Below, piece by piece: positions 2,750-59,202 of a DNA stretch of 64,000 nt. The stretch comes from a bacterium (GTDB taxonomy: Bacteria; Patescibacteriota; Minisyncoccia; Phycocordibacterales; UBA2100): assembly GCA_030647655.1 (NCBI GenBank), contig JAUSJH010000002.1:130445-194444 (forward strand), read 5' to 3'. Positions within the stretch are counted from its first letter, which is position 1, and each line of letters starts with the position of its first letter. Both the position numbers and the translations under genes were made by a program. Below the pieces are notes generated by a model. That model did not search any database. It saw only the letters and a program-made list of their open reading frames with translations, and was not told where the DNA came from.

Positions 2750-3812
2750 ATGCTTGTATTCATGTGTAAAGCTCTCTCCGCGACCGGCCTTGGCCTTTTT
2801 GTAGCAGTAGCCTTCCTTCCATTATTCGCCTCGGCAGCCACCTGCCCCAATCTCACGCAACCTCTCATACGGCTCGCGCGGGCAGGATATCGTTCAGTTG
2901 CAGAATTTCTTGGTTGCGGAAAGCGATCTCGGAGCTGGGAACAATACCGGCTACTACGGCCGCCTGACCGAAGCGGCGGTGAAATCATGGCAAGTACGAA
3001 ATGGCGTCGTCTCATCGGGAACGCCCGCGACAACCGGCTTCGGAGCCGTCGGCCCGCGCACGCGGGCGAAGATTGCGAATGTGTGTAGAGGAATAATATC
3101 TTCGCCTTTCACCGCCACACCGACATCGGGCGCGGCACCGCTCCAAGTCCAATTTACCTCTCCCTCAAGCTGCGTTCAACCGTACTCCATTGACTTTGGC
3201 GATGGCCAAACCAGCGGGCAAATCGTCGTTCCTCCGTGCAATGCCGATGGTAGCCGTCCATTACAACCAAAAAGTACTTATCATACATACGCCGCCGCGG
3301 GCACATACACGGCAAGCCTCACGGGAGAGGATCGGTCTTCTTGCAGTCCGCCGAACGCTCAAGGATTCGTTCAATGCACGTCTGCATATCGAACTACCCT
3401 CACCGTGACGATTACCGTTTCCGGAAATGGAAACACGGGAGTAAATTTCTCTGTACATCCAACATCTAGCAAGCCGCCGTTCTATGCGATATTCAGAGCC
3501 AATCTCCCGCTGTCTGAATCACCGGACGCATACTTTGTTGATTTCGGCGATGGGACCAACGCGAAAATGATTCGAAATCATGCATCGTGTATCCCGGAAG
3601 ATTATTCATGTACCGGTGGACCAGTTGCGTCGGTGTATGTATCGCACGAATATACAGTGATTGGCGTCTATGCGGCAAAACTCATAAAAGATTTCTCAGG
3701 TTGCATGCGAAATCCTGGAGGACCTTGTCTGCCTGTTTTGAATCAAATGCTCGGAACTCTGACAATTACCGTTGATCCATCGATTCCTATTCCCGATACG
3801 CGTGTGTATTAG
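2750..3812 (+). CDS. secreted peptidoglycan-binding (PG_binding_1) protein with PKD-like repeats; signal peptide is in a different frame (apparent +1 frameshift near 2860)
   Basis: The frame starting at 2750 encodes the signal peptide MLVFMCKALSATGLGLFVAVAFLPLFASAA. The frame open from 2811 encodes SYGSRGQDIVQLQNFL...GYYGRLTEAAVKSWQ (PG_binding_1) before any start codon. Later residues carry PKD signatures (FGDGQTS...HTYAAAGTYTASL; FGDGTNA...HEYTVIGVYAAKL). Confidence 0.55.
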
Positions 3813-3948
3813 TTTCCGATTACTGGGCACCTGTTGCCACTTTAAACCATGCGAACAATTTCTCGACATCTTTTAATATTTTTTACTGTCGCGTGACATA
3901 TCCACATGCGACAAGGTCATTTGTGCCGTTATCGCTCATAATGAGGGG

Positions 3949-4314
3949 ATGAAGTACAGCTCACTGCTTGGGTGGGGGATTGTCATTTATTCGGTCATGG
4001 CGCTTGCGTGGTCAGGCTTTGTCATCTACGGATTGTCGGGGACGCTGACTGGTCGCCTCTTGCAACTTTTGGTTTTGGTAATCGTCACAACGATCGCCGC
4101 CCGCGCGCTCAAGTTCCATTCATGGAAGGATATTCTTCCATACTCTATTCTCTGGGCAATAATGATGGGGCTTTTGGATTCCGTGTACAGCGTACCGTTT
4201 GGTGGGTGGGGAATCTATAGCGATTGGAATCTTTGGGTAGGCTATACGCTTGTGATTCTCGTGCCCCTGCTCGCGCCGAAGACGCGCGCGCTCCCGGCCT
4301 CTCACGAGGTCTGA
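3949..4314 (+). CDS. hypothetical small membrane protein
   Basis: Several predicted TM helices (GWGIVIYSVMALAWSGFVIYGL...); no recognisable family. Confidence 0.4.
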   Translation: MKYSSLLGWGIVIYSVMALAWSGFVIYGLSGTLTGRLLQLLVLVIVTTIAARALKFHSWKDILPYSILWAIMMGLLDSVYSVPFGGWGIYSDWNLWVGYTLVILVPLLAPKTRALPASHEV

Positions 4315-55439: not shown

Positions 55440-55712
55440 ATGGCAACAACAAAAGCAGGCGGAACAGCTAAAAATCTAAACGATTCAAATCCGAAGTATC
55501 TCGGCGTCAAACGCGCCGACGGGCAAAAAGTCGGCATCGGCGAGATAATCGTGCGCCAACGCGGGACGCTGATACTTGCCGGTAAGAACATCGGGGTCGG
55601 CGTGGACCATACCCTCTTTGCGCGGAGCGCGGGGACCGTACGATTTCGCACCAAGAGAAAAACGAATTTTGACGGGCGCTCGAATCGCCGTAGCATAGTC
55701 GACGTACTCTAA
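55440..55712 (+). CDS. rpmA: 50S ribosomal protein L27
   Basis: [37 protein letters not shown]...[15 protein letters not shown]. Confidence 0.9.
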
Positions 55713-56155
55713 GAGCTCGCGGTAATAGCGAGATTTATACGCGCTTTTGCGTCTCCCGAGACGATGTCAATAGCATGCTCCCCTGTTTCTTTAATGGGCT
55801 TCTCTAGTTGAATAGCCTCGATAAGAAGGTGCACGCCTTTCTTCTCTGATATCGCATTAGCGACATCGCGCGCAACTATCGATTTAAAAAGGCCACCTTT
55901 TTCCGTGGCGCGGGCTGATATCTCGATACGAGCACCTTCGAGACTCTGAATCGCCACTCTGAGCGCCTTCGTGGCCTCTTCCCGCGCCTCCTCTTCCCTC
56001 TTTTGTGCTGTGGCATGCGCCGCAATTTTTTCTGGCGTTGCTTGGACTGCAAGCCCGCGCGCAATGAGAAAATTCAAGCCGTATCCATCGGAAACTTCTT
56101 TCACCGCCCCGTGTTGCCCCACCTTCGCCACATCCTTGAGCAAAATGACTTTCAT
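55709..56155 (-). CDS. rplI: 50S ribosomal protein L9
   Basis: [31 protein letters not shown]... is typical L9. Confidence 0.85.
56116..56155. repeat. direct repeat, copy 1 (rplI 5' end)
   Basis: ccccaccttcgccacatccttgagcaaaatgactttcat; a near-identical copy lies at 56634-56672. Confidence 0.8.
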
Positions 56156-56379
56156 GGAAGTATTGAAACAAGATTATTTGCAATAACCGTGTTTTTTGAT
56201 CTGTCGTCGTATATGTTTAACTTCTTTCTCTCCTATGAACTTTTCGAACCGCTTTTTCAAAACAAGACAAACGGTGCACACCCCTTCTTTTTTTTGAAAC
56301 GCAAAAATGTTCCAATGCAAGTTCGTATAAGTGAACAGCATCATATTTTGAGAAAGAAATTCGTCGTCGAGCAACCATC

Positions 56380-56586
56380 TTATTGCGGGACCGGCAACTG
56401 ATTGCGCAAGCGGAAGATAAGCCATCCTTCCAGTGCAGACAGCAGGTTGGCTCGGCACTCTTCAAGCGTTCGGCCGGTCGCCCAGACCCCCCGAAGAGCC
56501 TTGATCTCGGCGTAAAAACGCTTTCCGCCGTCAATCATTTCGTCCCATGCCTGGGACAGAAAAGTATCTATAAAATCCTGAATCAT
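56380..56586 (-). CDS. HicB-like antitoxin domain protein (UPF0150/HicB N-domain)
   Basis: DGGKRFYAEIKALRGVWATGRTLEECRANLLSALEGWLIFRL fits the HicB consensus (DG..Y.A.vpeLpGc...G.TlEEa..n..eAl); 68 aa counted from the internal Met. Confidence 0.5.
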   Translation of the reverse strand: MIQDFIDTFLSQAWDEMIDGGKRFYAEIKALRGVWATGRTLEECRANLLSALEGWLIFRLRNQLPVPQ

Positions 56587-56633
56587 TGAGTCACTATAGC
56601 ACAAAGGAGTTTTGCAAACACGCGTCCATACTA

Positions 56634-56672
56634 CCCCACATTCGCCACATCCTTGAGCAAAATGACTTTCAT
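56634..56672. repeat. direct repeat, copy 2 (decoy rplI 5' fragment)
   Basis: ccccacattcgccacatccttgagcaaaatgactttcat. On the minus strand it would encode [13 protein letters not shown] followed by a stop. Confidence 0.8.
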
Positions 56673-56862
56673 TGAAACATTGTAAATCAAATCGGTTCAA
56701 CAATTGGTTGCATTGACATAACCAGCTTCAGTTGTACTATGCGTCCGGCTTGAGCTTCGGCTCTTGCTCCTTGAAACCGGGAGTGCTTCGGCATTCCTTA
56801 TATCCCTCCACCTTTCTTCGGAAAGGCCAACAGGGCTTCGGCCCAAGAGATGGAGAATCTCG

Positions 56863-57855
56863 ATGTCACTCAATAAGAAGTTGTTCGCAAGTGTTAGTGC
56901 TGTGCCGTCCCTTTCGGTCGCACTGGCCAACATGCTACCAGCCAATCGTTTGGCGCATGTGCTCACAATTACGAAGGGTCTCCCCTGCGTGGAAGGCCTC
57001 ACTGACGAGCGTATCGACCTGGAAATCGAACGCCATATCGGATTTATCTTCGACGCAATCGATGATATGTCCGAGATTTCGGAAACGGAGCGCGTTCTCC
57101 GATTTGAAAAGGCGATGGAACTTGCGCGATGGTACATGCGCAATGAATCCGCAGCCAAGATTCCAAAATCAATGGCGAAGTTGCTCGGCGAAGCTGCATC
57201 ACAATGGAGCACCGAACCGAATGAAGATGAGGCACAAAAGTTGCTAAAAAAAATCGCAGACTTCTACCTCAACTCTACAATGAAAGAGGTAAGCGATATC
57301 ACACGTTCGGCGATTAACAGGGCATGTGCGAACTGCTCGCTTGAGCGGTTGGCAAGTTCCTTGATTACGCTCAACGATATCAGGACGTGGAACTTCGGCG
57401 AGAGTATCTTTGACTCTATCGCGATCGGTCTCGTCAGAAAGCAAATTCTCGTTTCTCCGGCGTCAATCGTGCGTGCGGCCAACATCAACCTCGTCGTCGG
57501 TAACACGTTCTCGGAAGCTGCCGAAGGTGCACTCATCAACAAGGCGATTCGAATCGCACAAATCGATCAAGCTGCTCGGTCCTTTATCGGGCATCTTGAA
57601 GTCAACGGAAACTCCCGCTGGTCCCTGGAAAATATCGATGAGGCATCCAACACTGCAACAATCGCGTGCGTGGAAGGTCAGCGCAAGGCTGACGTGCCTC
57701 GGATCATAGAGGGTGCTCTCGAATACGCTCAAGACTGGGACAATCCCTATCAAGGCTTGGTCACGATAGTGCTCAAAGCGTCGCTCAGACCGGAATTCGG
57801 CGTCTTCGAAAGGAAGGCTGTCATATCTGGATCCCAACCGTCACATCGTGGCTGA
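56863..57855 (+). CDS. hypothetical protein (330 aa), no recognisable domain
   Basis: Starts MSLNKKLFASVSAVPSLSVALA (possibly a signal peptide); it lies next to the repeat-flanked cassette. Confidence 0.45.
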   Translation: MSLNKKLFASVSAVPSLSVALANMLPANRLAHVLTITKGLPCVEGLTDERIDLEIERHIGFIFDAIDDMSEISETERVLRFEKAMELARWYMRNESAAKIPKSMAKLLGEAASQWSTEPNEDEAQKLLKKIADFYLNSTMKEVSDITRSAINRACANCSLERLASSLITLNDIRTWNFGESIFDSIAIGLVRKQILVSPASIVRAANINLVVGNTFSEAAEGALINKAIRIAQIDQAARSFIGHLEVNGNSRWSLENIDEASNTATIACVEGQRKADVPRIIEGALEYAQDWDNPYQGLVTIVLKASLRPEFGVFERKAVISGSQPSHRG

Positions 57856-57927
57856 CGGGGTCAGATAAACTACCCTGCTCATTTCCCCTCCCCGTCGGCC
57901 TGCAGCGCGCAGACCGACGGTCTTTTT

Positions 57928-59202
57928 TTATTTACCCTTCAAAATCTCGACAGCCTTATCGAGCTGAGGGTCTTTACCCGCCTTTGCGTCATCGTCACTA
58001 ATATCGACTTTTACGTCCGGCGTTATTCCATCATGCGGGATATGGATGCCGTCGGGGCCGAGCCAGCGGGCGACCGTTATTTTGAGAGCCGTATCCGGAG
58101 TGATGTCCACGAGCTCTTGTACCGAGCCTTTCCCGAACGTATTGGTACCGACAAGCGTGGCTATCCCATAGTAATGCAGTGCATCAGCGAGGATCTCTGA
58201 AGCAGACGCCGAGCCGCGATCCACCAAGACGACCATTTTGAGGTTTTTGTTGAATATGTTGAAGCCGAGCGAGCGGTGTATTATGTTGCGCGCATGACCT
58301 GCATAATCCTCGGTAACAACTATCTTACCGCTCGGCAAAAACCAGCTCGCCATTTCGACGGATGCTTCCAAATACCCTCCCGGATTCCCGCGAAGATCGA
58401 GTATGAGCTTGGTATCACCTGATTGGACAAACTCACGAAGCGCATTGCGGAACAAATCCGAGGAGTTGGCCGTGAAGGTAGCGAGCTCGATGACGAATAT
58501 GCCATCGGGTCTTTTCGTCGTCGTAACTATCGGTACATTAATGACGTCGCGCACAACCTTTATCTCACGCGGGCCACTCGAGCCATCACGATAGATAGTG
58601 AATGTCACAGTGGTTCCCTTGGGACCGCGTATTTTTCTCACTGCCGCTCCGACATCCATCCCCTCCGTCGAAGCATCATCAATTTTCGCGATGCGGTCGC
58701 CGCTCTTGAGACCGGCCTTATCGGCTGGTGTACCCTTGAGTGGAGAAACGACCGTAAGCACCTTGTCCTTGACCGCAATTTCCATTCCGACACCTTCAAA
58801 GCTACCGCTCATGTCATCGTTGAATTGCTGGCTTTCTGAAGGCGGCAGGAAAAAAGTATATGGATCGTCCAGAGAGCCCGCGAGTCCCTGTATCATCCCC
58901 CACACGCGCTTTTGATTTTCCGCCTCGGTTGATGTGGCCACGGGCGTCGAGGTCGCGACCGCGGCCGGCACGAATTTATCATTGATAACGCCCCACGCTT
59001 TCCACACGGGTGAAAAATCCACATTGGGCGGGGGTCCGGCACTTACCGATACTCCGCCTGAAGCAAGTCTTCCCTGCCCTCCCACGACGAACCCGCCTGC
59101 GAATGCGAGCGCCGCAAGAAGTATACCGCCGAGCACAATCGTTACTCGCCTTGGGTGTCGCGGGGCGAACGGAAGCGCGATACTCTTTTTTTCTTCGAAC
59201 AT
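57928..59202 (-). CDS. ctpA: carboxyl-terminal processing protease (peptidase S41)
   Basis: N-terminal TM helix, a PDZ region, and the S41 catalytic region (VLVDRGSASASEILADALHYYGIATLVGTNTFGKGSVQ). Confidence 0.85.
   Translation of the reverse strand: MFEEKKSIALPFAPRHPRRVTIVLGGILLAALAFAGGFVVGGQGRLASGGVSVSAGPPPNVDFSPVWKAWGVINDKFVPAAVATSTPVATSTEAENQKRVWGMIQGLAGSLDDPYTFFLPPSESQQFNDDMSGSFEGVGMEIAVKDKVLTVVSPLKGTPADKAGLKSGDRIAKIDDASTEGMDVGAAVRKIRGPKGTTVTFTIYRDGSSGPREIKVVRDVINVPIVTTTKRPDGIFVIELATFTANSSDLFRNALREFVQSGDTKLILDLRGNPGGYLEASVEMASWFLPSGKIVVTEDYAGHARNIIHRSLGFNIFNKNLKMVVLVDRGSASASEILADALHYYGIATLVGTNTFGKGSVQELVDITPDTALKITVARWLGPDGIHIPHDGITPDVKVDISDDDAKAGKDPQLDKAVEILKGK

Follow-up and report, generated by a model that had tools for sequence, protein, structure and literature searches.

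Upstream of rplI, the gene for ribosomal protein L9, a Patescibacteria genome carries the remnant of a HicB-HicA toxin-antitoxin (TA) cassette enclosed between two copies of the rplI start. The locus lies in a stretch of 64,000 nucleotides (nt) of contig JAUSJH010000002.1 (GCA_030647655.1), which is the whole stretch of DNA that we analyzed and which we henceforth call the window. The source is a metagenome-assembled genome, and the best protein matches place the host among Candidatus Kaiserbacteria-like Patescibacteria. The rplI gene itself (55709-56155, minus strand) is intact: it encodes 148 amino acids (aa) with matches to PF01281 and PF03948, and its product is identical to NCBI MDO8514125.1, one of the entries for the proteins of this locus (MDO8514125-27, locus tags Q7S50_). 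The remaining features are collected in Table 1. Loci of other genomes and contigs are denoted by L numbers.

Table 1. Features of the rplI upstream region, in window coordinates
Feature	Position	Strand	Remarks
Repeat copy 1	56117..56168	-	Codons 1-13 of the real rplI and the 13 nt before them, with a degenerate TGnTTCAAT -10-like box
Third cassette gene remnant	56174..56378	-	About 67 aa, conserved H..C..CxxC; from tblastn and alignment
Deletion scar	56376..56384	-	About 265 nt missing relative to intact cassettes (alignment with L117, L101 and L098)
Truncated hicB-like gene	56380..56586	-	68 aa plus stop; family norm 82 aa; NCBI MDO8514126.1
Putative extended -10 promoter box of the cassette, TGCTATAGT	56593..56601	-	7 nt before the hicB ATG; from conservation
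Pseudo-rplI open reading frame	56631..56672	-	13 codons, then TAG
Repeat copy 2	56634..56685	-	TACAAT -10-like box at 56679-56684
330-aa hypothetical gene	56863..57855	+	Not present between ctpA and rplI in the nearest relatives
ctpA (S41 peptidase)	57928..59202	-	Far edge of the inserted region 56156-57927; directly upstream of rplI in most relatives

The duplication is a direct repeat of 52 nt with 90% identity between its copies, which lie 517 nt apart from start to start. It contains an exact 32-mer, TTCGCCACATCCTTGAGCAAAATGACTTTCAT, at 56124-56155 and again at 56641-56672, for which 100 shuffles gave an expectation of 0 matches. No other local direct repeat of 28 nt or more in the 64-kb window is convincing. 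The coding parts of the two copies (39 nt each, separated by 478 nt) differ by one mismatch, C at 56123 versus A at 56640, which changes Lys11 to Asn. Upstream of the ATG, the repeat extends at lower identity for about 13 nt, with 9 of 14 positions alike (about 65%). A sequence-only reading of this DNA had described the 5' end of rplI as copied on both sides of a cassette, with the second copy encoding 13 residues before a stop; both observations hold, the stop being TAG. In an independent assembly of run SRR13727527, the Logan contig L157 reproduces the flank of copy 2 that faces the 330-aa gene and ends exactly 30 nt into that copy, as expected because a de Bruijn graph with k=31 branches at a true repeat.

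Between the copies, the 68-aa open reading frame (ORF) at 56383-56586 matches the UPF0150-like profile PF21748 of the HicB clan (E 1.8e-22; 79.4 bits versus a cut-off of 27.3) over positions 1-64 of 64, in agreement with the HicB/UPF0150 fold previously assigned to it by eye. The closest solved relative is TTHA0281 (PDB 2DSY, E 4e-14), matched using P0006, which is 91% identical to the HicB of the window. We found 218 close homologues, nearly all from Patescibacteria metagenomes and typically 82 aa long. Relatives of this length at 85-93% identity end in HFKVPxKxKxQKxYA; the window HicB lacks the last 14 residues and is therefore short of the full antitoxin length (82 aa, basic C-terminal tail). 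On the opposite strand, an ORF coincides exactly with hicB; we dismissed it, since it is open in just 13 of 48 distinct family members.

No HicA had been recognized in the initial reading, and none is present in the six frames of 56150-56420 or in the corresponding Pfam and NCBIfam searches. On the window, tblastn instead recovered hicB residues 1-68 followed by a third cassette gene in two frames, with no hicA. Nucleotide alignment with the cassettes of L117, L101 and L098 accounts for this by one deletion of about 265 nt that removes hicB codons 68-82 and the whole of hicA, so that the stop of the window hicB is a TAA from the former hicA stop region. Relative to the intact L101 and L117, the third gene carries a +1 frameshift, an extra A in an A8 run (a T-run on the plus strand, 56288-56295), which may be a sequencing error. 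This frameshifted gene also explains the AT-rich stretch and an ORF at 56174-56344, which is its 3' two-thirds. The DNA between the copies had been called AT-rich as a whole, which applies to 56156-56382 (35.7% GC; window mean 53%) but not to hicB (54%). The ORF had been reported to overlap hicB in another frame; only a GTG-extended version of the ORF does so, and the ORF as such lies 3' of the 68-aa gene. A profile search of the ORF for HicA or HicB gave no match, the ORF being part of the third gene, which itself has no match among Pfam, PADLOC and PDB profiles (nor do its window fragments in NCBIfam). Relatives have a hairpin ahead of the hicB promoter, which the window copy likewise lacks. 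Thus, the window has neither the adjacent hicA that accompanies hicB in intact relatives nor the complete addiction module found in the homologous L101/L103 arrangement. Judged by its sequence, with toxin gene and antitoxin tail deleted and the third gene frameshifted, the module is dead, and rplI is presumably transcribed through its remnant.

The cassette family and its recurrence upstream of rplI

More than 50 contigs carry an intact cassette, consisting of overlapping hicB (82 aa) and hicA (73 aa) genes that the third gene may or may not accompany. Of 66 loci recovered by scanning metagenome contigs, nearly all have a 4-nt overlap of hicB and hicA, and about one quarter possess the third gene as well. 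At L081, on a contig of GCA_030651385.1, a HicB 91% identical to that of the window is followed by hicA and then by the third gene. The L081 hicA overlaps hicB and encodes 73 aa that match PF07927 (HicA_toxin) with an E-value of 3.9e-5, just under the cut-off; PF07927 is on record for the HicA of L163. The third gene of L081 encodes 67 aa, MMTNRRISFSKYDAAHLYDLALEHFCVSKEEGICHLCLNLKKRLEKFIGAKEVRYIRKQNKKHPYSN, with an invariant His and a Cys-x2-Cys motif. In proteins of 65-73 aa from this and other loci (L081:2055-2258, L163:1209-1418 and 11 more), we also noted that R6-I-S-F, H16, C34 and C37 are invariant and that the C-terminus is basic. The third protein may be a regulator or zinc-binding partner in a tripartite module.

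In nearly all family loci, a TGnTATAnT box resembling an extended -10 element stands 7-8 nt 5' of the hicB start codon, in many cases with a hairpin ahead of it. This conservation among loci is the basis on which we read the box of the window (Table 1) as a putative hicB promoter. Cassettes from different loci are alike for only about 25 nt 5' of hicB, the promoter region, and are unrelated further upstream; right-hand flanks, compared for a subset of loci, are also locus specific.

The family fits known HicBA systems (HicAB modules: Makarova, Grishin and Koonin, 2006, as cited in PMC13385816) in its HicB/UPF0150 fold (PF21748, TTHA0281), its hicB-hicA gene order and a HicA-like gene (PF07927) of 73 aa that overlaps hicB by 4-8 nt in intact relatives. 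It differs from them in several respects. Its HicB is minimal, with 82 aa and neither a ribbon-helix-helix nor a helix-turn-helix DNA-binding domain; its HicA falls just below the Pfam cut-off and has GKH instead of GSH; and about one quarter of the cassettes include the extra 67-aa CxxC gene, which is in no library that we searched. The window copy departs further through its loss of hicA and of the antitoxin tail.

Members of this family lie directly upstream of rplI in at least seven other lineages (L098, L101/L103, L102, L104/L107, L105, L117 and L163-165), whose RplI proteins are 52-63% identical to that of the window. At L101/L103, the rplI start is duplicated over 104 nt with 83% identity, from -18 (including a TGnTACAAT box) to +86, and the pseudo-copy reads as 31 codons of RplI (to +93) before a hairpin and the hicB promoter. 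L104/L107 retain only a 3' remnant of the L101-type rplI fragment, with an identical junction, directly after ctpA. On the right-hand side, the junction of third-gene stop, about 20 nt and rplI ATG is conserved among the window, L101 and L117, and in L098, L102, L104 and L107, which have no third gene, the hicA stop lies 2 nt before the rplI ATG. The same architecture occurs with an unrelated hicBA pair in another Kaiserbacteria genome (L003), where a 43-nt duplicate of the beginning of rplI (14 codons) starts 2 nt after the ctpA stop, and hicB, hicA and the real rplI come next. There, the HicB-like protein has 81 aa, and HicA has the canonical GSH motif and matches PF07927 with an E-value of 4.8e-15. 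The rplI start is, in short, a site in repeated use.

Flanking duplications also accompany the cassette away from rplI. At L081, the cassette and a 157-aa ORF lie between fusA and tuf, bracketed by copies of the last ~50 nt of fusA (86% identity) with a further 26-nt match, and at L091 a 34-nt flanking repeat overlaps the start of the downstream ORF. When each family locus was compared with itself, 8 of the 47 distinct loci that could be assessed proved to have the cassette enclosed by a direct repeat of 34-104 nt peculiar to that locus. In the controls, such bracketing was seen in none of 1500 random segments drawn from 80 related genome loci and in 22 of 553 cases from other parts of the cassette-bearing contigs. 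Several of the repeats, those of L091 and L106 included, extend over a promoter or over the opening bases of the gene that follows. The cassette family is thus significantly enriched for long, locus-specific flanking duplications.

Some family members and their surroundings show further peculiarities. Independently truncated HicB variants of 66 aa, ending in RNHLVV or RNRLVV and with no hicA, are found on more than 20 contigs (L083-L090, L131, L135 and L132 among the loci); some of these loci adjoin a PIN-domain gene upstream of prfB. Toxin loss that leaves a shortened orphan antitoxin seems to be a common fate in the cassette family. Several different TA-like modules stand in a row at L119:350-2460, spaced by an element of about 70 nt with the palindrome CCAAGGGTTACCCTTGG, and at L132:1-2300, spaced by GC-rich hairpins; both layouts resemble a cassette array, with no obvious integrase on the contig. 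At L122 (1241-1720 and 585-953), two ORFs that lie downstream of a cassette copy and within or beside a 38-nt flanking repeat pair resemble, by eye and from translation only, a reverse transcriptase and a four-helix-bundle protein. A search for the cassette in phages and viral contigs gave no match, and a plasmid search gave only two distant cyanobacterial HicB homologues with 33-42% identity.

Extent and age of the inserted DNA

Among 80 species-representative genomes, ctpA, rplI on the same strand and a convergent rpmA form a conserved layout in which the ctpA-rplI gap is commonly 8-40 nt. The nearest relatives of the window RplI are 69-70% identical, with none closer in a collection of 5.8 billion proteins. 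At the loci of this group (L002, L159, L160 and L162), which have the same cysS-corA-ctpA-rplI-rpmA synteny, at most about 10 nt separate the rplI ATG from the gene before it, unless the two overlap. L159 and L160, in which ctpA ends 2 nt before the ATG, share an extended synteny of cysS-corA-ctpA-rplI followed by a 122-aa gene, RNase T and an M23 peptidase, and the convergent rpmA is present in L159 and L162 as well. In the window, by contrast, ctpA and rplI are 1,772 nt apart (56156-57927), a distance taken up by the orphan 330-aa gene, the pseudo-rplI start and the cassette remnant. Because ctpA abuts rplI in the nearest relatives, all of 56156-57927 is inserted. Relatives with matching synteny, at 69-70% RplI identity and with no sibling strain among them, carry only one rplI start and lack the insert.

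These data uphold the sequence-only reading in its claim that the DNA between the copies is foreign: ctpA abuts rplI in the nearest relatives, and the cassette is less diverged than the host genes (see below). An arrangement common to all relatives would have marked the insert as ancestral, and the nearest relatives are without the cassette. Two related expectations have to be revised. Genomes lacking the insert were expected to have rplI directly after the gene at 56863, yet the nearest relatives lack the 330-aa gene too and have ctpA in that place. The insert had also been considered very small; it comprises the whole of 56156-57927 and is also older than had been supposed. Several divergent Kaiserbacteria lineages share the association of the cassette with rplI, and the window copy is a decayed remnant rather than a fresh arrival.

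The 330-aa gene has a single distant homologue (36% identity), at an unrelated locus. Its leader (56741-56862, plus strand) is preceded by a promoter-like TTGACA-16-TACTAT site (56713-56740, plus strand) and includes a row of four hairpins with C(UUCG)G tetraloops, GAGCTTCGGCTC, GGAGTGCTTCGGCATTCC, CCTTTCTTCGGAAAGG and GGGCTTCGGCCC. The minimum free energy of the leader is -46.3 kcal/mol (z = -1.7), and it has no Rfam match. Unrelated genes also occupy the ctpA-rplI spacer (at about 2900-4000) in L001, L005, L011, L012, L018 and L046. By eye, the L005 spacer encodes a 241-aa protein resembling an IS200/RayT-type transposase and the L018 spacer a 298-aa, apparently membrane-spanning protein; the 256-aa and 271-aa proteins of the L011 and L046 spacers are homologous to each other.

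The age of the cassette relative to its host genes can be gauged from third codon positions. Between the window and L098, these are identical at a fraction of 0.78 in hicB versus 0.43-0.48 in rplI, rpmA and ctpA, and between L101 and L102 at 0.91 in hicB versus 0.50 in rplI. The host genes themselves disagree on relationships: nucleotide identity between L098 and L104 is 93% for rpmA, 83% for ctpA and 65% for rplI, and rplI of L098 is 81% identical to that of L101. As a result, L098 groups with L104 by rpmA and with L101 by rplI, and L101 groups with L104 by hicB. By these sequence comparisons, the region is a mosaic and the cassette is younger than the divergence of its hosts, which together point to horizontal exchange by recombination. 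The rplI gene has apparently been exchanged between lineages (L098, L101 and L104), which calls for caution when it is used to trace vertical descent within the clade. Kaiserbacteria-like genomes have a recombination hot spot at the junction of ctpA and rplI.

Mode of insertion and competing explanations

We found no integrase or transposase within about 10 kb of the insert, where the neighbours are cell-wall, tRNA-synthetase and similar housekeeping genes, and no integrase in the intact rplI-linked cassettes either. The insert ends have no inverted repeats, a tRNA scan of the window found none, an Rfam scan gave no match and a terminator scan nothing relevant to the repeat. Across loci, no shared terminal repeat or att-like core is visible at the cassette boundaries, and the end point of the rplI duplication varies (+39 in the window, +43 in L003 and about +86 to +93 in L101). 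Several classical elements were discarded on these grounds: a transposon, insertion sequence or miniature inverted-repeat transposable element for want of terminal inverted repeats at the insert ends, an integron cassette since downstream sequences differ by locus with no attC-like Rfam match, and a tRNA island since the window contains no tRNA. Site-specific integration between attL and attR is not supported, given the absence of a recombinase and a conserved core, together with the variable end points and the different flanks at each locus.

A better precedent is provided by restriction-modification (RM) units, which insert between direct repeats of more than 30 bp and of variable length, without mobility genes and mostly in naturally competent species. 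This was termed 'insertion with long target duplication' (Furuta, Abe and Kobayashi, 2010; PMC2853133; see also Nobusato et al., 2000, on long target duplication of RM units, as cited there). The repeats considered here are longer than 30 bp (43-52 nt, with 90-95% identity), and the insert (478 nt) stays within the 20 kb set in PMC2853133 for inserts without mobility genes. As with RM units, we are dealing with a small selfish addiction module that has no integrase or transposase and lies between direct repeats that are locus specific, variable, often imperfect and overlapping the ends of neighbouring genes, and that would correspond to a single copy in insert-free genomes. Unlike in the RM cases, the cargo is a type II TA cassette and the host belongs to the Patescibacteria (Candidate Phyla Radiation, CPR); the genomes that show the empty site are about 30% diverged at RplI and include no sibling strain; and what is duplicated is the promoter plus 5' end of a gene for an essential ribosomal protein, a target that recurs in several lineages. 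In our literature search, no report of long target duplications around TA cassettes of CPR bacteria came up.

Together, these comparisons lead us to lean towards homology-anchored insertion with long target duplication of a promoter-carrying HicBA cassette that was acquired horizontally and has since decayed. From the arrangement of the sequences we infer how the recombination took place, in which direction transfer went and where the promoters lie. In the proposed scheme, cassette DNA already linked to rplI in a donor would recombine into a recipient, anchored on one side by homologous rplI sequence and joined on the other side illegitimately, or through very short homology, within the 5' region of the recipient's rplI. 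The rplI start would thereby be duplicated as a long target duplication. The truncated copy and the real rplI would then constitute two homology arms to one conserved target, which could permit RecA-type transfer to other lineages whatever stands upstream of their rplI.

Several observations weigh against this scheme. The coding parts of the window copies are identical at 38 of 39 positions, and each matches the copy of any other lineage at no more than 35 of 39. Their mutual closeness calls for a crossover right next to the ATG, duplication of sequence belonging to the recipient itself or later gene conversion, and is not predicted by a simple donor and recipient model. The 13-14 nt upstream of the ATG are far less alike between the copies than the coding part. 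The bracketing repeats of L119 and L133 are present threefold, which could mark them as generic elements of intergenic DNA rather than target duplications, and the third-position conservation of hicB could in part reflect constraint rather than recency. Finally, the searched collections hold no strain-level relative (the next-best RplI is 70% identical), which blocks both a precise comparison of filled and empty sites and dating of the duplication.

Among the alternatives, the least unlikely is a single ancient acquisition of the cassette together with the rplI 5' duplication in an ancestor of Kaiserbacteria, followed by vertical inheritance and later losses, with the copies kept alike by gene conversion and no ongoing mobility. 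Such a history would sit well with the right-hand junction shared by the window, L101 and L117, with the alignment between the TACAAT-box sequence of copy 2 and its counterpart before the L101 pseudo-copy, and with the heavy decay of the window cassette. We nevertheless consider it unlikely, since hicB is more conserved at third positions than the flanking housekeeping genes, since hicB, rplI and rpmA imply discordant relationships among L098, L101 and L104, and since the left junction differs by lineage (+39, about +86 to +93 or none). Vertical descent also does not account for a family that sits at many unrelated loci with other flanking duplications and is missing from the nearest relatives.

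Duplication of the end of a target gene around foreign DNA is typical of integrase islands, and the sequence-only reading had accordingly named site-specific integration (attL/attR) as one source of the footprint. An integrase element that brought a replacement rplI 5' end could have been reduced to about 480 bp later, its integrase lost during the erosion that the cassette has evidently suffered. The likeness to attL/attR islands and to integron cassettes extends to the foreign DNA between direct copies of a gene end and to the small, promoter-proximal cassette, but not to a recombinase, a core, an attC-like element or a fixed repeat length, and the repeats differ at each locus. No integrase, transposase or tRNA is found nearby, the eight other rplI-linked arrangements with intact cassettes have no integrase, and the duplicated flanks are different ones at other loci; the phage search gave nothing and the plasmid search only the two distant homologues already mentioned. 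With end points that vary between genomes, such an origin is very unlikely, and the other source that had been named, repeat-mediated insertion, fits the data better.

An artefact would arise if the 32-nt identity had led an assembler to stitch in the cassette of a co-occurring strain or to create a second copy, and both the metagenomic origin of the assembly and the break of the independent Logan contig inside the repeat are compatible with one. The copies, however, are distinguished by one coding base and by their flanks on both sides, the junction of copy 2 is reproduced in the Logan contig, and the independent L003, L101 and L103 have the same architecture. A donor strain would moreover need the distinctive rplI 5' sequence of this lineage, so that a chimera is unlikely and artefact overall is scarcely credible. 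Equally hard to credit is a regulatory leader, in which the 13-codon pseudo-rplI ORF would couple rplI-type translation signals to hicB and the downstream rplI: the pseudo-copy does keep its ATG, frame and -10-like box along with near identity to the real start, and the hairpin that relatives have between the fragment and the hicB promoter is gone from the window, but the fragment varies in length (13, 14 or 31 rplI-matching codons), is partly or wholly missing in several cassette-bearing lineages and precedes a hicB that has its own promoter box at nearly all loci, with no Rfam or structural signal.

Significance for Patescibacteria

Homology-anchored insertion with long target duplication, as favoured above for the window, would have consequences beyond this single copy. 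The feature in the window is a dead TA remnant and carries little functional weight. The cassette family, by contrast, offers a concrete and testable example of the movement of a selfish module among ultra-small, probably transformation-dependent bacteria. Of wider interest is a defined TA cassette family of the CPR with this mobility signature, repeatedly found at the ends of translation genes. A tentative and rather doubtful generalization is that minimal TA cassettes of Patescibacteria, which are largely without classical mobile elements, spread autonomously by homology-anchored insertion with long target duplication, landing by preference on the highly conserved ends of translation genes (rplI 5', fusA 3') and taking the truncated copy along as a portable homology arm, through which ordinary recombination could carry them into further lineages that have such a gene end. 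Recombination between the repeats might also excise the cassette as a circle. The hot spot at the ctpA-rplI junction matters for the use of ribosomal protein loci as stable phylogenetic markers, and the family would extend to toxin-antitoxin systems a form of long-target-duplication mobility that has so far been documented for RM systems.

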